Below the pieces are notes generated by a model. That model did not search any database. It was not told where the DNA came from and saw nothing but the letters and a program-made list of their open reading frames with translations. A DNA stretch of 63,896 nt, filler included, from an uncultured Methanosarcinales archaeon (lineage in GTDB: Archaea > Nanobdellota > Nanobdellia > Woesearchaeales > CAYXTQ01): assembly GCA_964608065.1 (NCBI GenBank). It is 4 parts of 4 records of this genome, joined end to end, with 100 filler letters (N's around TTAATTAATTAA, not from the genome) between each part and the next. Parts side by side here need not be neighbours in the genome. Positions count along the whole stretch, not along the records: positions 18,181 to 35,822 come from CAZSMA010000023.1; 3 more parts are not named here. The stretch is one strand, 5' to 3'. This document shows positions 869 to 55,604 of the stretch, piece by piece. The translations under genes were made by a program, and so were the position numbers. How positions within the stretch are numbered: the first letter of the stretch is position 1; each line of letters opens with the position of its first letter.

Positions 869-2716
869 ATGGCCAAAAATAACAAGACTGATTATAAAAC
901 TCCAAAGAAAGAAACAAAGAAAAAAGAAGAATTACCAAAGGAATTGCAACAACTACCAAAAGAAGCCCAGGAAAAACTAAAGCAAATAAAATCAAAGCTT
1001 GAAAAGTTTAAGAAAAAAGTTCTAGACAAATTTGATAAATATATTACAGGAGTTGCATTATTACCTCCTCCAAAACCTGAAGAAGGCAAAAAAGAAGATA
1101 AAGAATCTATTAATGTGTTAGTTCTAGTAGATGATTCTGACAGCCAAAAGATGTCAAAGCAGGAGTTAAAGGAAAAGTTAGGGACTATAGTTGAGAGTGT
1201 TGCAAAGGAAATTGATAAAAACATTAAACCACAGACAGTTATTCTATCAGAGCTGTGGCAGAGTTGTTATGATGCTAAATATGATCTATTGCAGTTGATA
1301 GCTTTATCTGCTCCAATACATGATACTGGAATGTTATCTGCTATCAAAATAGCTGAAGTCCATAAAAACATGATTCTAAAGAAGTTTGAAAGATATATTG
1401 TTAGTTATGTTCTAGCTGGAAGCTTAGTTCAAGGCAAGGCTACTAAAACTTCAGACATAGATGTATGGGTTGTCATAGATGACACTGATGTTAAAAAGAT
1501 GACAAGAGCAGAATTAAAGGATAAATTAAGAGCTATTATCATAGGAATGGGTATTGAAGCAGGAGAGATGACTGGAATCAGAAATAAATTAAATATCCAG
1601 GTCTATATATTGACTGATTTCTGGGATTCTTTAAAAGAAGCAAATCCTATAATTTTCACTTTATTAAGAGATGGAGTTCCATTCTATGACAGAGGCATAT
1701 TTATGCCTTGGAAACAATTATTGAAGATGGGCAAAATCAAGCCAAGTGCTGAAGCTATAGATATGTTTATGAGCTCTGGTGAGCAGATGCTTCAGAGAGT
1801 TCATTTCAAACTAAAAGATATTGGGATGGAAGATATATTCTATGCAATACTGACTCCATCACAGGCTGCTATAATGATGTACGGTTTGAGTCCTCCAACT
1901 CCAAAAGAAACTCCAAGATTAATGAGAGAATTGTTTGTTCAGAAAGAGAAATTACTGGAAGGAAAGTTTGTAGATATTTTAGACAGAACTATTAATATAA
2001 GAAAAGAGATAGAGCATGGCAGTAAAAAGGAGTTAACTGGAAAGGAAGTAGACCAGTTATTGACTGATGCTGAGAAATATCTGAAAAGAATAAAAAGACT
2101 ATTCACACAGATTGAGAAGATCAAAGAAGAGTCAGAGATGATAGAAGTCTATGATACAATAGTTACTATGATAAGGGATGTTTTAAAATTAGAAGGTATA
2201 GAGAAAGTTTCAGATATAGAGATTGTCAAGATATTTGAAGATGAATTAATTGCACAAGGCAAGATTCCTGCTAAATTCTTAAGAATGTTAAATGGGATAA
2301 TCAAAGCTAAGAAAGATTATGATGAAAAGAAGTTAACTAAAGAAGAAGTGGAAAAGGTCAAGAAAGATTCAAGAGTGTTTATCAAGTTCTTAGTTGAATA
2401 TATGCAAAGGAAAAGAGGCAGAGAATTAGAAAGAGCTAAAATCAGGGTTAAACATGGCAACAGATACGGAGAAGTTATATTATTAGGGGATGTTGCTTTT
2501 ATTATCCATGATATTGATCATGAAGAGAAAGAGTTAAGTAAGGCAAAAATTAAACCTGATGGAAGCTTAGGTCCTACTTCAAGAACTACATTAGAAGAAC
2601 TAGAGAAATATTTAGCAAAAGTAGAGATTCCTCCAAAAGTCTTTATCAAAGAACCAATCTTCGAAGATTTAAAGAAAGTGTTTGGTAAGGATGTTGAAGT
2701 TTTGGTTAATTATTAA
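869..2716 (+). CDS. nucleotidyltransferase (MNT)-HEPN multidomain protein
   Basis: GSLVQG..SDIDV pol-beta NTase motif, degenerate N-terminal NTase repeat (INVLVLVDD), HEPN-like helical region with RKEIEH. Confidence 0.75.
   Translation: MAKNNKTDYKTPKKETKKKEELPKELQQLPKEAQEKLKQIKSKLEKFKKKVLDKFDKYITGVALLPPPKPEEGKKEDKESINVLVLVDDSDSQKMSKQELKEKLGTIVESVAKEIDKNIKPQTVILSELWQSCYDAKYDLLQLIALSAPIHDTGMLSAIKIAEVHKNMILKKFERYIVSYVLAGSLVQGKATKTSDIDVWVVIDDTDVKKMTRAELKDKLRAIIIGMGIEAGEMTGIRNKLNIQVYILTDFWDSLKEANPIIFTLLRDGVPFYDRGIFMPWKQLLKMGKIKPSAEAIDMFMSSGEQMLQRVHFKLKDIGMEDIFYAILTPSQAAIMMYGLSPPTPKETPRLMRELFVQKEKLLEGKFVDILDRTINIRKEIEHGSKKELTGKEVDQLLTDAEKYLKRIKRLFTQIEKIKEESEMIEVYDTIVTMIRDVLKLEGIEKVSDIEIVKIFEDELIAQGKIPAKFLRMLNGIIKAKKDYDEKKLTKEEVEKVKKDSRVFIKFLVEYMQRKRGRELERAKIRVKHGNRYGEVILLGDVAFIIHDIDHEEKELSKAKIKPDGSLGPTSRTTLEELEKYLAKVEIPPKVFIKEPIFEDLKKVFGKDVEVLVNY
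2636..2714 (+). repeat. 79-bp direct repeat copy 1 (3' end of MNT-HEPN gene)
   Basis: identical to 3241-3319. Confidence 0.95.
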
Positions 2717-2973
2717 TAGACTCTTCCTCTTTTGTCAAATTTAATAACTAAAATCAATTTTTCTTCATATGAAACTGAATACAGAATTCTATAATCACCT
2801 ACTCTAACCCTAAATATTTTCTCATCTTTGTATTCTTCTACCCTTACTGTTTCTGGAGGGAAAGGCTCTAATTGAAGTCTTAGTAGTTTAGTTTTTATTC
2901 TTTTCTTAGTTAACTCATCTAGTTTGTTAATAAATTTAACAGCTCTTGGTGCAAATTCAACAGAAAAAAGCAT
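2713..2973 (-). CDS. RelE/ParE family type II toxin
   Basis: 86 aa with 'FRVRVGDYRILY' and C-terminal 'KRGRVY'. Confidence 0.9.
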   Translation of the reverse strand: MLFSVEFAPRAVKFINKLDELTKKRIKTKLLRLQLEPFPPETVRVEEYKDEKIFRVRVGDYRILYSVSYEEKLILVIKFDKRGRVY

Positions 2974-2974
2974 T

Positions 2975-3181
2975 TTAACTAAAGACTTCTTTCATAGATT
3001 TTAGTTTATTTTGTTTCTTTGCTTCCAATGCTTCATCTACTGCTTTTTTATCTTCATCTGAGAGAAATTTGTCCTCAAACACACTTTTAATGAAATCCAC
3101 TTCTTTTTTCACACCAGTAACTACCTTTTTTATTTCTCCTATTTCATGCATTACATTATTTTGGAATTTTATTTCTGTCAT
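2975..3181 (-). CDS. putative antitoxin
   Basis: 68 aa directly upstream of the toxin; 'LSDEDKKAVDEAL..LKSMKEV' C-terminus typical of archaeal antitoxins. Confidence 0.75.
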   Translation of the reverse strand: MTEIKFQNNVMHEIGEIKKVVTGVKKEVDFIKSVFEDKFLSDEDKKAVDEALEAKKQNKLKSMKEVFS

Positions 3182-3240
3182 AGTTAGTATATATGGCTAT
3201 GATATATATAAAACTTTTGTTTACTTACCAATAGAGTTCT

Positions 3241-3319
3241 AAAGTCTTTATCAAAGAACCAATCTTCGAAGATTTAAAGAAAGTGTTTGGTAAGGATGTT
3301 GAAGTTTTGGTTAATTATT
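3241..3319 (+). repeat. 79-bp direct repeat copy 2 (orphan gene 3' end)
   Basis: identical to 2636-2714; reading frame ends in TGA. Confidence 0.95.
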
Positions 3320-3377
3320 GATTTAAAGTTTTAAAATCAACAACATTTAAATACTACTATTTTCTTTCAAGGTGCTT

Positions 3378-18080: not shown

Positions 18081-18180
18081 NNNNNNNNNNNNNNNNNNNN
18101 NNNNNNNNNNNNNNNNNNNNNNNNTTAATTAATTAANNNNNNNNNNNNNNNNNNNNNNNNNNNNNNNNNNNNNNNNNNNN
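18081..18180. other. artificial contig linker
   Basis: N-run with TTAATTAATTAA six-frame stop spacer. Confidence 0.98.
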
Positions 18181-23614: not shown

Positions 23615-23794
23615 GCCCTGGTAGCTTAGTGGTTGGAGCGTGCGACTGTTACTTTAAAAGTGGACATCGCAAGGTCGCCAGTTCAAAACAACTGGTTACG
23701 CTCGGTTGACACGCAAGGTGCGACATTTTGCTTCGCAAAAGTCCCACTTGCTCACTAATCGTTCGCAATCAGTGTGAAAGTCTGGCCCGGGGCG
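23615..23794 (+). tRNA. tRNA-Asn(GTT) with two introns: 14 nt at 37/38 (23652-23665) and 93 nt at 59/60 (23688-23780)
   Basis: acceptor GCCCTGG/CCGGGGC, anticodon stem TGCGA/TCGCA, T stem GCCAG/CTGGC; T-loop intron forms BHB TTCA-AA|A...TGAA-AG|T. Confidence 0.88.
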
Positions 23795-25025: not shown

Positions 25026-25134
25026 GGGCCTGTAGCATAGTCTGGTTGGTGCGCTCGAGGCTAACGCCGGCGAAACTGATATCCAAATCAGGCTAGAAAT
25101 CGAGTGGTCCCGTGTTCAAATCACGGCAGGCCCA
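25026..25134 (+). tRNA. tRNA-Ile(GAT) with two 17-nt introns: 30/31 (25058-25074) and 37/38 (25082-25098)
   Basis: GGGCCTG/CAGGCCC acceptor, CCGTG-TTCAAAT-CACGG T arm; BHB CGCT-CG|A-GGC..GCC-GGCG-AA|A. Confidence 0.85.
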
Positions 25135-25181
25135 TTTTATTCCCATAAGATTAATATACAACTTTGGTTTCTTTAGAACAG

Positions 25182-34623: not shown

Positions 34624-34716
34624 AGCCCTGTAGTGTAGAATGATGAAACCATGCACAACGGTCAATCATGCGACCCTCTGGAGGTTGCGACCTCGGTTCG
34701 AATCCGAGCAGGGCTA
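34624..34716 (+). tRNA. tRNA-Gln(CTG) with 20-nt D-loop intron at 15/16 (34639-34658)
   Basis: BHB GTGT-AG|A-ATG..CAT-GCAC-AA|C; spliced D arm matches the intronless tRNA-Gln(TTG). Confidence 0.88.
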
Positions 34717-34724
34717 TTTATTCT

Positions 34725-34821
34725 CATTGAGGGACTCCGACCGTTAGGGCAAGGAGTCGCTCTTTGCGTGTCAACTGAGCGTAACCAGTTGGTTCTGAAT
34801 CCGGGTGGGGCTATTTATTCT
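34725..34821 (-). mobile_element. structured mini-element plus duplicated tRNA-Gln 3' end
   Basis: 34756-34791 is the reverse complement (33/36) of 23689-23724; 34797-34821 repeats 34700-34724 (22/25). Confidence 0.6.
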
Positions 34822-34872: not shown

Positions 34873-34945
34873 AGCCCTATAGTGTAGCGGTCAATCATCT
34901 CGGATTTTGGGTCCGAGGACCTCGGTTCGAATCCGGGTAGGGCTA
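34873..34945 (+). tRNA. tRNA-Gln(TTG), intronless
   Basis: AGCCCTA/TAGGGCT, TCGGA-TT TTG GG-TCCGA, GGTTCGAATCC. Confidence 0.93.
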
Positions 34946-35822: not shown

Positions 35823-35922
35823 NNNNNNNNNNNNNNNNNNNNNNNNNNNNNNNNNNNNNNNNNNNNTTAATTAATTAANNNNNNNNNNNNNNNNNNNNNN
35901 NNNNNNNNNNNNNNNNNNNNNN
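35823..35922. other. artificial contig linker
   Basis: N-run with TTAATTAATTAA. Confidence 0.98.
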
Positions 35923-53302: not shown

Positions 53303-53402
53303 NNNNNNNNNNNNNNNNNNNNNNNNNNNNNNNNNNNNNNNNNNNNTTAATTAATTAANNNNNNNNNNNNNNNNNNNNNNNNNNNNNNNNNNNNNNNNNN
53401 NN
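53303..53402. other. artificial contig linker
   Basis: N-run with TTAATTAATTAA. Confidence 0.98.
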
Positions 53403-54123: not shown

Positions 54124-54459
54124 ATGAACGATGAAAATTTATGTTGGGAATGTGGAAAAAAAATGAAAATAAAAAAAGTAGATTATTCTCTATACGGCAT
54201 TAAGATAGGGAAATTTCCTGCGAAAGTATGTGAAAAATGCAATGAAACTTATTTTAGTGAAGAAACATCAAAAAAGATGACAGGGATTGCAAAAAAGAAA
54301 GGTCTTTGGGGATTACAAGCTAAAACAAAAATAGGTCAAGCAGGATCAACATTAGATATAAGATTGCCTAAAAAAATAATTGATTTTTTAAATTTAAAGA
54401 AAGGGGAAGAAGTTACAATATATCCTGAAGATAAGAATAAAATAATAATATATACCTAA
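54124..54459 (+). CDS. YgiT/MqsA-type zinc finger plus AbrB domain putative antitoxin
   Basis: CWECG..VCEKCNETYF; 'GSTLDIRLPKKIIDFLNLKKGEEV'. Confidence 0.8.
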   Translation: MNDENLCWECGKKMKIKKVDYSLYGIKIGKFPAKVCEKCNETYFSEETSKKMTGIAKKKGLWGLQAKTKIGQAGSTLDIRLPKKIIDFLNLKKGEEVTIYPEDKNKIIIYT

Positions 54460-54725: not shown

Positions 54726-55604
54726 TTAGAAATAAAGAGAGCTTATTTTATTAATGACAAATTTACTCACGTCATGGAAGTTAATATCTTTAATAGATAA
54801 TCCTAGTTCCTTCAATTTGGGTTCTATGATTAATTGATTTACCATCATATCCCATTCGTTTGGTTTTGCTGAGTGGTAAATGGAATCTGAAAAATTTTTT
54901 AGAGTAAATGCTTCTGTTTTACCAGCAGGTAATTTTTTCCAAATATCTTTAATTTTACAAACATAACCTTTTAATAATAAAATATAAAGGTCAAATAAAT
55001 CCCTTGCTTCGTCTCTTTGACCAAAAATAAAATTTTTATCCAAAATTGTTATAATTTTTTCAGCAAATATTTCTTTTGGATCGACTACGTTCAAATTTAT
55101 GATTCCTTTAAGTCTATAGTACTTTAGGAATAAAGAGGTATCATGATACTTTTTCTTAATACCATATATCAACTTTTTTCTCGATGATAAATCAAATTTT
55201 ACATGGCTACTTCTATGGGTTTGTGAAAAAGCTGGACCCCTAATGTCAGTGTGTACATTAAAACCTGTAGGGTTTTCTTTTATTATGAAATTAATATTGC
55301 TAAATCCAAAAAGTTCTCTTAATGTATTTGTTAAATGCTTGTTAAACAATAAATCAATATTTCTTTTTACTAATTTTCCTGCCAAAATATCAAAATCCAA
55401 ATCTTCTGAAAATCTTGGGAAACCATAACATTTGTATAAACAGGTTCCGCCTTTAAAAGCCAAATATTTTGTATATTTTTTAAGCCGCGTAAGATTAAAA
55501 AGTGAATATAAAAAAATATTATGAAACAATTCTTTTTCTGTATTTTCCAATGATAAATGAACTTTCTCAGCTAATTTCTCTAGTTCAAAAAAATTTATTG
55601 GCAT
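54726..55604 (-). CDS. AbiEii/AbiGii type IV toxin nucleotidyltransferase
   Basis: FKGGTCL, RFSEDLDF, AEKI, RDLFDL. Confidence 0.92.
   Translation of the reverse strand: MPINFFELEKLAEKVHLSLENTEKELFHNIFLYSLFNLTRLKKYTKYLAFKGGTCLYKCYGFPRFSEDLDFDILAGKLVKRNIDLLFNKHLTNTLRELFGFSNINFIIKENPTGFNVHTDIRGPAFSQTHRSSHVKFDLSSRKKLIYGIKKKYHDTSLFLKYYRLKGIINLNVVDPKEIFAEKIITILDKNFIFGQRDEARDLFDLYILLLKGYVCKIKDIWKKLPAGKTEAFTLKNFSDSIYHSAKPNEWDMMVNQLIIEPKLKELGLSIKDINFHDVSKFVINKISSLYF

Follow-up and report, generated by a model that had tools for sequence, protein, structure and literature searches.

A 28-nt module common to a tRNA-Asn intron and an insertion beside tRNA-Gln may help to show how archaeal tRNA introns are gained

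Results

Two tRNA genes with inserts

The window considered here, by which we mean the whole stretch of DNA that was analysed (63,896 nt including filler, hereafter 64 kb), comes from an uncultured archaeon submitted as Methanosarcinales and placed by GTDB in the Woesearchaeales (GCA_964608065.1). It carries a tRNA-Asn(GTT) gene with two introns and a tRNA-Gln(CTG) gene followed closely by a short antisense insert (Table 1).

All four stems of tRNA-Asn (acceptor, D, anticodon and T) pair in the hand parse. As it stands the gene is missed by ARAGORN and by Rfam at the gathering score, positions 8–63 of the Rfam tRNA model matching 23622–23696 below that score. Once 23688–23780 was removed in silico, as an intron would be, the cloverleaf was restored and ARAGORN called tRNA-Asn(gtt). 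The smaller intron, assigned to 37/38 by hand parse and reported by ARAGORN as 14 nt in the anticodon loop, forms a bulge-helix-bulge (BHB) with a central helix of 4/4 pairs (G.U pairs included), an outer helix of 5 and an inner helix of 3. The larger insert folds into a strict hBHBh' motif, with 3-nt bulges (AA/A and AG/U, slash at the splice junction) on opposite strands. Its outer helix is the T stem, GCCAG/CUGGC (5 bp), its central helix is UUCA/UGAA (4/4), and its inner helix comprises 2 bp and then six more past a 1-nt bulge; the intron as a whole folds into a rod (-30.2 kcal/mol, z = -3.05). The insert is thus predicted to be a canonical helix-bulge-helix-bulge-helix intron at 59/60, as the preliminary description of this DNA had proposed. 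No EndA gene was found among the 54 window ORFs scanned.

The tRNA-Gln(CTG) gene, which has a 20-nt D-loop insert at 34639–34658, is called by ARAGORN and missed by Rfam at the gathering score. Its 3' end recurs beyond the mini-element as an imperfect direct repeat of 29/30 nt (X and X' in Table 1), for which the local alignment score is 18.5 against a shuffled maximum of 10.0; X' has an extra T (TTCTGAAT). A direct repeat of part of the tRNA therefore stands at both borders of the insert, the arrangement by which integrative elements are recognised.

Table 1. Features of the two tRNA loci, with positions counted along the window
Feature	Position	Strand	Basis or remarks
tRNA-Asn(GTT) gene, two introns	23615..23794	+	Hand parse; ARAGORN call after removal of the T-loop insert
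14-nt intron, canonical 37/38 (hand parse)	23652..23665	+	BHB check; ARAGORN anticodon-loop intron, 14 nt
93-nt predicted BHB intron, 59/60 in T-loop, module-family member	23688..23780	+	Strict hBHBh' motif
Conserved 28-nt module: hairpin P1 (CAACUG / loop GUUACGCU / CGGUUG) and linker ACACGCAA	23689..23716	+	Seed recovers 103 loci
Hairpin P2: GUGCGAC ... GUCCCAC, conserved C.C mismatch, C(UUCG)G tip	23718..23747	+	Outer-triplet covariation 14/14; fold
Right arm	23748..23780	+	Pairs with module 5' end; UGAA (23775-23778) pairs with T-loop UUCA as the central BHB helix
Intact tRNA-Gln(CTG) gene	34624..34716	+	Comparison with tRNA-Gln(TTG) at 34873-34945; ARAGORN Gln(ctg)
Repeat copy X: T-loop to 3' end of intact tRNA-Gln(CTG), with trailer TTTATTCT	34696..34724	+	Local alignment
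66-nt mini-element, antisense to the tRNA	34726..34791	-	Module 34764-34791, P2 34729-34762
Truncated repeat copy X' of tRNA 3' end, with trailer	34792..34821	+	Starts in T-loop, abuts module 5' end

A module shared by the two inserts

The preliminary description had held that the start of the Asn intron matches the reverse complement of sequence beside tRNA-Gln, and that the differences between the two preserve pairing. The match is present, 33 of 36 bases being identical between 23689–23724(+), CAACTGGTTACGCTCGGTTGACACGCAAGGTGCGAC, and 34756–34791(-); none of 100 dinucleotide shuffles yielded any match with three or fewer mismatches, and in a repeat search of the window the similarity stretched to 46 nt at 85%. 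The change from GUG..CAC to GAG..CUC is borne out as compensatory, module position 16, whether A or G, retains its pair with U5, and the hairpin tips of the two copies are indeed unrelated in sequence. It is likewise the same end of the element that meets a T-loop TTC at both loci: the module 5' end abuts TTC-A/G-AA, with the junction TTCAAAA/CAACTGG at Asn and, on the minus strand, ATTCAGAAC/CAACTGG at Gln, where the flank is the reverse complement of the duplicated T-loop. Searches of the window with blastn-short and with nhmmer and a module profile gave no copies beyond these two, one an intron and the other not, and terminal inverted repeats (TIRs) are absent from both.

A family of copies in DPANN genomes

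A scan with a 19-base seed, which samples exact-seed copies, returned 103 loci (23 of them with only ~300 nt of flank) in about 60 assemblies by hand count, almost all of them DPANN, where about 4.3 hits would be expected by chance (1.2e12 positions / 4^19). One seed hit, on a Parasalinivibrio chromosome (L094), has flanks unlike those of the family. The 28-nt module is almost invariant across genomes labelled Woesearchaeota, Nanoarchaeota and Nanohaloarchaea, among them, as labelled, a complete Nanosalina genome and several Nanohalobium MAGs. A single MAG holds 16 seed-matching loci, and the ends of some loci lie about 100 nt or less from the end of a contig.

The common unit consists of P1 (CAACUG-GUUACGCU-CRGUUG), the linker ACACGCAA and then the variable hairpin P2. 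A purine occupies module position 16 in 99 of 105 seed copies (G 53, A 46, T 5, C 1). In the NNNCGAC..GTCCNNN subfamily, which comprises 14 of 107 copies and includes both from the window, the outer P2 triplets are fully complementary in all 14 by way of seven different triplet pairs, whereas the triplet shifted outward is complementary in 0/14. Further traits of an RNA type are the G.U tolerance of position 16, UUCG and GNRA-like tips, extra hairpins at one junction and, in long forms of the element, a multi-helix RNA fold with compensatory change in 10 of 27 predicted pairs.

At the gathering score, Rfam 15 gave only tRNA hits in the window and none on five long-form loci, while lenient scans gave no family for locus L010 and, at both window loci, only tRNA and weak, chance-level matches. 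Among the papers listed in literature searches on DPANN or Woesearchaeota tRNA-intron repeats and MITEs, none describes the module family in its title or abstract opening, and the sole match to the module sequence as text in papers was in an unrelated zebrafish paper.

Location of the copies

When four automated criteria are pooled, at least 51 of 107 copies are tRNA-associated. ARAGORN places a tRNA no more than 150 nt from 25/105 copies, compared with 2.5% of positions; nhmmer finds a tRNA-like match at 33/105 copies, compared with 1/81 control segments; and in-silico splicing produces a tRNA spanning the junction in 33/107. Copies run in the same orientation as the tRNA far more often than in the opposite one (21:4), and the tRNAs that host T-loop introns, where ARAGORN gave them an identity, are those for Asn, Ile, Ala, Ser, Trp, Pro and Arg. 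The sites include introns in the T-loop and the anticodon loop, D-loop positions and exact tRNA 3' or 5' ends, as well as the starts and stops of protein genes and the interior of long, MITE-like forms with TIRs and target-site duplications (TSDs). The earlier proposal of insertion at tRNA T-loops consequently stands as regards the association with tRNAs and gives way as regards the T-loop, which is one of several kinds of site.

Near-identical copies occur in unrelated tRNAs of a single genome. In one same-assembly pair (L024/L067) all 76/76 element bases are identical and the tRNA bodies agree at 37/60; in another (L011/L078) the figures are 142/144 and 36/60. These pairs were found in related genomes, the window having one intron copy in its 64 kb. 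Since such copies occupy unrelated tRNAs of one genome, the suggested link to tRNA intron gain appears reasonable.

AT-rich sequence yields many chance BHB motifs, and for this reason only the T-loop-anchored BHB test was used. All 14 T-loop introns with downstream sequence, a class that follows our own classification of copies with helices read directly from the alignments, have a 3' site with a 4/4 central helix and a T stem of at least 4 bp, against 67/420 trials with shuffled downstream sequence. Within these introns N57 covaries perfectly with the opposite intron base (G-C in seven copies, A-U in seven). A generic BHB scan around copies did not discriminate (40/94 against 87/213 control positions), nor did one with the 5' site within 2 nt of the module (29/94 against 140/355 controls); the prediction of splice competence, made on structural grounds, therefore extends no further than the T-loop class and a small number of other copies.

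Duplications and junctions

Target duplications accompany 30 of 94 testable copies, in the order truncated target copy, element, intact gene. Several are perfect (22/22, 39/39, 21/21), some lie inside genes, and their length ranges across the family from 14 to 45 nt, which is unlike a fixed-length short TSD. In many cases the outer edge of the duplication falls 0–3 nt from a gene end, being 1–3 nt before tRNA +1 (seven loci), at ATG (two) or 0–2 nt past the stop codon (three). Five to seven extra junction bases occur in 12 loci. Five copies (L021, L038, L050, L054, L092) join the tRNA exactly at position 71/72, with CA common to the tRNA end and the module, and two (L084, L099), which lie on the other strand, abut the 5' end of the tRNA. 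The long forms have TIRs of two different types and, as judged by eye, 8–9-bp target duplications.

Pfam searches detected no integrase, transposase or reverse transcriptase among the 14 ORFs of the contig and 40 others in the window, and no mobile-element enzyme in the 25 most recurrent neighbour families of the fetched loci (752 ORFs clustered). No ORF family adjoins the module in more than five loci, and the top 25 representatives are housekeeping or lack a Pfam match.

Discussion

Origin and spread of the copies

We regard it as probable that the two copies in the window are members of a family of mobile elements, small, non-coding and structured as RNA, that extends across DPANN. The preliminary description had seen in them a repeated, structured, non-coding mini-element in either orientation, and the (+) and (-) copies of the window, together with the large family, agree with this. 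Its non-autonomous, mobile reading also finds support in the number of copies, the near-identity of some and the absence of a mobile-element enzyme from the neighbourhoods searched, while its appeal to a tyrosine integrase finds no support, the 54 window ORFs and 25 neighbour families offering no integrase, transposase or reverse transcriptase. The insertion of family copies is suggested by the repeats and the copy patterns; no pair of empty and occupied orthologous sites was seen, and neither a donor nor a mobilising enzyme came to light in the sequences searched.

On the mobile-element reading, the element would be copied in trans by machinery encoded elsewhere than beside it, insertion would bring a target duplication of variable length, and a copy would persist only where harmless. 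Harmlessness could come about through a transcript that folds into a BHB for the host splicing endonuclease and ligase, through placement in a leader or trailer open to trimming by RNase P or RNase Z, or through a duplication that rebuilds an intact gene end. The first and last of these had been put forward for the window copies and remain in good standing: the Asn copy is a predicted BHB intron, and at Gln the tRNA 3' end is duplicated and the gene intact. Because the UGAA of the Asn right arm pairs with the T-loop UUCA, tRNA position 59/60 is the one place where its BHB is possible. T-loop introns of the Asn type most likely moved as whole units from one T-loop to another, and the short homology for this may come from the conserved T-arm sequence. 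The mini form lacks TIRs, and its 14–45-nt duplications are unlike known DDE transposition; a simple staggered-cut model fits duplication edges near gene ends only with added selection.

Several other origins deserve consideration. A virus or plasmid may have integrated at the T arm of tRNA-Gln by att recombination and then been almost wholly deleted, and the Asn intron may derive, as proposed for Caldiarchaeum, from an attP that carried an intron. Archaeal integrative elements classically leave a tRNA 3' end directly repeated next to a tRNA that has been reconstituted (PMC3293823; PMC4090602), and the 29/30-nt Gln repeat does begin in the T arm. The Gln insert, however, is 66 nt long and codes for nothing, neither an integrase nor any other recombinase was found in the window ORFs or recurrent neighbour families, and one fixed attP cannot duplicate many unrelated targets that include protein-gene starts and stops. 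The 93-nt intron has no match in a phage collection, and its one match in a plasmid collection (21 nt, Levilactobacillus plasmid, E = 0.7) was taken as chance. We hold such a scar to be highly improbable. A somewhat different case can be made for the module and P2 as a functional RNA of use to the host, for example a protein-binding or guide RNA, which would ride on tRNA transcription, be freed by EndA, RNase P or RNase Z and multiply through duplication and recombination of the ordinary kind. Precedent exists in the C/D box RNA of an archaeal tRNA-Trp intron. The near-invariance of the 28-nt module across class-level lineages could instead reflect host RNA function, and 21 of 25 tRNA-linked copies are co-oriented even when leaders and trailers, where orientation should not affect tolerance, are included; the RNA-style covariation with its G.U pairs and the compensatory changes in the long forms' multi-helix fold point the same way. 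Less easily accommodated are the 16 seed-matching loci of one MAG, the loci near contig ends, the copies inside TIR/TSD MITE-like elements, antisense copies such as that at Gln, perfect target duplications inside genes and the lack of any Rfam family match. As an explanation of the whole family we judge it rather unlikely, although host-RNA function and mobility are not mutually exclusive and this account overlaps with that of a mobile element.

Spread might also have been mediated by RNA. A reverse transcriptase would copy the element RNA to its defined 5' end and, by a template switch, continue on the 3' end of a different cellular RNA, such as a processed tRNA, a 5' exon or a piece of a transcript, and the chimeric cDNA, perhaps circular, would recombine with the gene to leave the truncated target copy, element and intact gene. 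This would suit a module whose 5' end is always flush with the junction, the five exact joins at 71/72 with their shared CA, the two copies against tRNA 5' ends, the duplication edges near tRNA +1, ATG and stop codons, the extra junction bases at 12 loci, the strong bias to sense orientation, and the same extra T at position 56/57 in two independent truncated T-loop copies (window and L021). Yet no reverse transcriptase appears in the window ORFs or recurrent neighbour families, an encoded CCA or poly-A mark was not seen, antisense copies such as that at Gln need an additional step, stop-codon edges are not natural RNA ends, and the extra junction bases share CCA or CAGC motifs and so may simply belong to some subfamilies. 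This route seems unlikely to us. We are equally doubtful of the broader proposition that the family is an RNA-level parasite or symbiont of tRNA processing, written back by reverse transcription and recombination. Were it true, an RNA with a defined 5' end would join processed or broken cellular RNA ends and in this way generate tRNA introns, leaders and trailers anew; BHB introns would have in the family a live and traceable source, and the truncated tRNAs would have arisen as retro-copies of tRNA transcripts.

Trans-splicing of the Asn/Gln pair as a split tRNA of the Nanoarchaeum type was rejected by hand, as the stems and bulge geometry do not fit. Plus-strand Gln RNA could pair with the left arm of the Asn intron at 35/36 positions (two of them G.U, by hand); the attached Gln 3' piece (CCGGG / UGGGGCU) pairs with neither the T stem (GCCAG) nor the acceptor (GCCCUGG) of Asn.

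Relation to known systems

In 2010, Fujishima et al. reportedly described transposing BHB tRNA introns in Thermoproteales. Two reports (PMC4090602; 10.64898/2026.10.13.758758) likewise record, for Thermoproteales, families of near-alike BHB introns that occupy various tRNA types as well as non-canonical positions, their transposition being inferred without a mechanism; the preliminary description's premise of BHB introns confined to single loci is out of date. As set out there, those introns resemble ours in that similar BHB introns occupy different tRNA types at non-canonical positions within one genome. Our copies differ in their DPANN lineage, in the near-invariant 28-nt 5' module of all members, in the occurrence of that module outside introns (leaders, trailers, protein-gene ends, antisense, MITE-like forms) and in their many target duplications. 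The tRNA-Thr locus of Caldiarchaeum subterraneum, where intron gain and a tRNA fragment are attributed to an integrated element (Sugahara et al. 2012, PMC3293823), is comparable in that an insertion lies next to an intact tRNA between direct repeats of a tRNA portion, and in the tie to gain of a non-canonical intron. Its insert is 1.8 kb and encodes a recombinase, whereas module inserts are 56–93 nt, contain no gene and have many unrelated targets. The C/D box RNA housed in an archaeal tRNA-Trp intron (PMC4090602) shares with the Asn copy a structured RNA inside pre-tRNA that is freed by the splicing endonuclease (predicted here); unlike such functional RNAs, the module shows no C/D or H/ACA box arrangement, has no Rfam match, is multi-copy and bears insertion footprints.

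Like MITEs, the elements are small, non-coding, multi-copy, structured and dependent on functions supplied in trans, and the long forms have the TIRs and short target duplications described above. Unlike MITEs, the mini form of the window has no TIRs and a 29/30-nt duplication at Gln, and the module core of the long forms looks like a passenger nested in two TIR types. Eukaryotic SINE-like retroposition involves short, non-coding, tRNA-gene-associated sequences with variable-length target duplications. In contrast to SINEs, the conserved end of the module is 5' rather than 3', and neither poly-A nor a partner reverse transcriptase was found in the sequences searched.

These observations bear on how archaeal tRNA introns reach new positions, and the family provides something that was missing from the Thermoproteales work. 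A single recognisable module turns up at several positions in tRNAs as an intron predicted to be competent for splicing; elsewhere it is an unspliced insertion, in either orientation and with fresh duplications, or a passenger in MITE-like elements. Intron gain therefore becomes testable by census, population comparison and RNA sequencing. The module family also explains tRNA genes that standard finders miss in these genomes (Asn by ARAGORN and Rfam, Gln(CTG) by Rfam). For a further tRNA in the window, at 25027–25135, the identity call varies with the place at which its insert is cut.

The two copies in the window

The inverted match between the tRNA-Asn intron and the tRNA-Gln flank described in the preliminary description was borne out. 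The 36-mers at 23689-23724 (plus strand) and 34756-34791 (minus strand) differ by three mismatches, a match absent from all shuffles (0/100), and a repeat search of the window extended it to 46 nt at 85%. Neither blastn-short nor a profile search detected a third copy within the window. Both loci lie on the contig at 18181-35822, which, like the rest of the window, encodes ordinary archaeal housekeeping proteins; those of the window include Elp3, ATP-dependent DNA ligase, FtsZ, an archaeal-type helicase, thermosome, an eRF1-domain protein, PheRS, SecY and ribosomal proteins. A search of the window proteins, on this contig and the remaining ones, turned up no splicing endonuclease and no integrase, transposase or reverse transcriptase.

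Features of the window and of its tRNA-Asn and tRNA-Gln loci
Feature	Position	Description	Basis
Contig joins	18081-18180, 35823-35922, 53303-53402	N runs around TTAATTAATTAA; window is four concatenated contigs, not a single molecule	
tRNA-Asn acceptor stem		GCCCUGG/CCGGGGC	hand parse
tRNA-Asn D stem		GCUU/GAGC	hand parse
tRNA-Asn anticodon stem		UGCGA/UCGCA, loop CUGUUA|A	hand parse
tRNA-Asn T stem		GCCAG/CUGGC	hand parse
tRNA-Asn discriminator	23794	G	hand parse
tRNA-Asn first insert	23652-23665	14-nt intron at 37/38	passes BHB check
tRNA-Asn second insert	23688-23780	93 nt, between A59 and U60	
tRNA-Gln(CTG)	34624-34716	complete but for a 20-nt D-loop insert	
tRNA-Gln(CTG) D-loop insert	34639-34658	AATGATGAAACCATGCACAA; includes box-C-like ATGATGA; absent from tRNA-Gln(TTG)	
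tRNA-Gln(CTG) T-loop-to-trailer segment	34696-34724	GTTCGAATCCGAGCAGGGCTATTTATTCT	
Imperfect repeat of that segment	34792-34821	GTTCTGAATCCGGGTGGGGCTATTTATTCT	
tRNA-Gln(TTG)	34873-34945	follows the Gln element	

The tRNA-Asn gene was overlooked by ARAGORN and by Rfam at gathering score; after in silico deletion of the 93-nt insert, ARAGORN reported tRNA-Asn(gtt) with the 14-nt anticodon-loop intron. The 93-nt insert satisfies the strict helix-bulge-helix-bulge-helix (BHB) rule: the 5-bp T stem serves as outer helix, U54-A57 (UUCA) pairs with UGAA at 23775-23778 as central helix, and the bulges A58 A59 | A and A G | U60 are accompanied by an inner helix. Folded in isolation, the intron is predicted to form a long rod (-30.2 kcal/mol, z = -3.05), in which the shared 36 nt would make the left arm and the intron's 3' third the right, with many G.U pairs. 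By hand alignment, Gln plus-strand RNA could pair with the left arm at 35/36 positions. A split-tRNA reading of the Asn/Gln pair was rejected by hand, as the attached 3' piece does not match the stems of tRNA-Asn and the geometry of the bulges is incorrect.

At tRNA-Gln(CTG), the two repeats are separated by a 66-nt insert that carries, on its minus strand, the module followed by variable hairpin P2; the truncated repeat touches the module's 5' end, with the intact gene on the P2 side. A strict BHB test turned up no motif for the D-loop insert. One locus from another genome, L021, mirrors this arrangement (full tRNA, sense element, copy truncated in the T-loop), its truncated copy lying in minus-strand orientation about 95-117 nt past the module start. 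The truncated tRNA 3' copies at 34792-34800 and in L021 both read TTCTGAAT, the intact genes reading TTCGAAT (window) and TTCAAAT (L021). The same extra T stands at T-loop position 56/57 in two independent truncated copies; it may be fortuitous, stem from an artefact at the junction, or record copying through a modified T-loop.

A structured module across DPANN genomes

GTDB species-representative genomes were scanned with the module's first 20 bases, position 16 left free. This returned 103 loci (L001-L103) with 105 matches, where about 4 chance matches were calculated, from about 60 assemblies by hand count of the locus table; the window's own two loci were absent from this set. Nearly all are labelled Woesearchaeota, Nanoarchaeota/Nanobdellota, Nanohaloarchaea (Nanohalobium and a complete Nanosalina genome) or "uncultured Methanosarcinales" MAGs; one locus occurs in a MAG labelled Aminicenantes, and one match, in a Parasalinivibrio chromosome, is probably fortuitous. 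The MAG DAOVBM01 holds 16 seed-matching loci, some with a contig end within about 100 nt. The module family is DPANN-wide, not a two-copy oddity. No description of it was found in the titles and abstract openings of literature on tRNA-intron transposition, DPANN BHB introns or MITEs, Woesearchaeota intron repeats and the motif itself.

The shared unit comprises hairpin P1 (CAACUG, loop GUUACGCU, CRGUUG), the linker ACACGCAA and P2. Position 16 (G 53, A 46, T 5, C 1 among 105 copies) pairs with U5 as A-U or G.U in 99/105 copies because a purine stands there, a pattern that fits a putative RNA hairpin on the module strand. The P2 subfamily NNNCGAC...GTCCNNN accounts for 14/107 copies, both window copies included. 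Its outer triplets, seven different pairs, are complementary in 14/14 cases against 0/14 in a shifted control, which confirms the compensatory change proposed earlier. Some copies carry one or two additional hairpins between P1 and linker, as is typical of structured RNAs.

Among 752 ORFs clustered from the loci, no protein family adjoined the module in more than five loci; representatives of the top 25 neighbour families were housekeeping proteins or lacked a Pfam match. The 93-nt intron matched nothing in a phage collection and nothing meaningful among plasmids.

Association with tRNA genes

ARAGORN placed a tRNA within 150 nt of 25/105 copies, against just 2.5% of all locus positions, and a tRNA profile matched the flanks of 33/105 copies versus 1/81 control segments. 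Removal of candidate inserts yielded a junction-spanning tRNA in 33/107 copies. Together with the T-loop motif, these measures link 51/107 copies to tRNAs, and about seven more were recognised by eye. Copies share the orientation of the tRNA far more often than they oppose it (21:4).

Manual reading divided the tRNA-linked copies into five groups: T-loop introns resembling that of the window's tRNA-Asn; anticodon-loop introns (e.g. L036 in Gln CTG, L025, L071); tRNA 5' fragments ending in the D-loop, followed by a module copy and a second, complete tRNA; exact junctions at tRNA position 71/72, with CA common to tRNA end and module (L021, L038, L050, L054, L092); and antisense copies (window Gln, L004, L019, L046, L084, L099). 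In L014, a tRNA 5' fragment is immediately preceded by a diverged inverted module (CGCAACTGGAGCCTCGGTTGAC, other strand) and followed by a sense copy, about 20-45 nt from the inverted one, so that opposed modules bracket the fragment.

In 21 copies the motif GTTCRAW lies no more than 26 nt upstream of the module; contig ends cut three of these, and four belong to the group joined to tRNA 3' ends. In all 14 remaining copies, a 3' site allows a central helix paired at 4/4 positions and a T stem of at least 4-5 bp, as against 67/420 trials with shuffled downstream sequence. These introns are 82 to 223 nt long; the host tRNAs that ARAGORN identified are Asn, Ile, Ala, Ser, Trp, Pro and Arg. Across them, N57 covaries with the opposing intron base (G57-C in L015, L018, L055, L056, L062, L085 and L089; A57-U in the window, L001, L011, L017, L078, L093 and L103). 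The T-loop specificity of this subtype is structural, since UUCR in the T-loop is the pairing partner of the intron 3' end. A generic BHB scan could not distinguish family copies from control positions, and splice competence is therefore claimed only where the anchored test works.

Identical or near-identical elements occur in unrelated tRNAs of single assemblies: L024 and L067 share 76/76 element bases with tRNA bodies matching at 37/60, and L011 and L078 share 142/144 with bodies at 36/60. Such a pattern has been described for Thermoproteales as intron transposition (PMC4090602; 10.64898/2026.10.13.758758).

Target duplications and long forms

We aligned the 45 nt upstream of each module with the sequence 28-420 nt downstream; 94 copies were testable, 13/107 being too near a contig end. 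A significant direct repeat was found in 30/94, including the window Gln copy. The duplications span 14-45 nt, several are perfect, and their targets are mutually unrelated. The truncated target copy touches the module directly or via 5-7 extra bases (e.g. CCACGG, CCATGG, CCAGCA). The outer edge often coincides with a gene end: 1-3 nt before tRNA position 1 (L007, L014, L016, L029, L033, L037, L044), at ATG (L009, L042) or 3 nt before it (L100), or 0-2 nt beyond the stop codon of an antisense gene (L060, L068, L075). Element and repeat form tandem arrays in L030, L046 and L090.

By eye, about 28 copies have a module that begins a core of about 200 nt with more hairpins. When 11 of these copies, drawn from several genomes, were aligned, the consensus comprised P1 to P4 plus a closing CCC/GGG helix, with compensatory change in 10/27 predicted pairs. 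Covarying stems and the closing helix were noted in L010, L012, L020, L023, L028, L048, L052, L058, L061, L079 and L080. The core, which had no Rfam match, is possibly a structured RNA of DPANN archaea that has escaped description. Long-form cores are nested in elements bounded by terminal inverted repeats; on either side of these elements, target duplications of 8-9 bp were recognised by eye (GGTTAAAA, CTATAAAGC, ATAATTTA, GTTTGATA, TGTTGGAG, GGAAATTAT). The core looks like a passenger in MITEs, because two different terminal-repeat types carry it and, in DAOVBM01, pairs of the same terminal repeats, spaced by about 160 nt, are also present where no seed match is nearby.

Possible routes of spread

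The central idea of the preliminary description, a small, non-autonomous, structured element occurring in both orientations, stands, as does its account of harmlessness: a predicted BHB intron in tRNA-Asn, and at tRNA-Gln a duplication that leaves an intact gene. T-loop targeting holds for the intron subtype; the family as a whole is tied to tRNA genes generally and to gene ends. Nothing points to the suggested integrase, neither the window proteins nor the recurrent neighbour families. Copying at the DNA level would require variable staggered breaks or microhomology-driven copying, with subsequent selection for intact genes, and copying through RNA would proceed by template switching at RNA ends and cDNA recombination; each route accounts for part of the data. 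The module RNA may also have a functional role, for which its near-invariance and sense-orientation bias speak.

Other features of the window

A further tRNA gene at 25027-25135, overlooked by ARAGORN and Rfam, has clear acceptor, D and T arms, while its anticodon region is interrupted by about 34 nt of inserted sequence. Its anticodon varies with the cut site (candidates include Ser, Val, Leu and Phe), and a strict BHB motif was not detected. An AbiEii-family nucleotidyltransferase toxin ORF (54726-55604, minus strand) adjoins an ORF at 54124-54459 with a weak MazE-like match. Finally, an 82-nt direct repeat, 99% identical (2636-2717 and 3241-3322), duplicates the 3' end of ORF 869-2716 around a 523-nt insert containing two small minus-strand ORFs. 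One (2713-2973) is presumably akin to RelE/ParE-type toxins, judging from its GDYRILY motif, and the other, of 68 aa, lies just upstream. The gene-end-duplication layout of this locus (2636-3322) is like that of the mini-element, but with a cassette inside.
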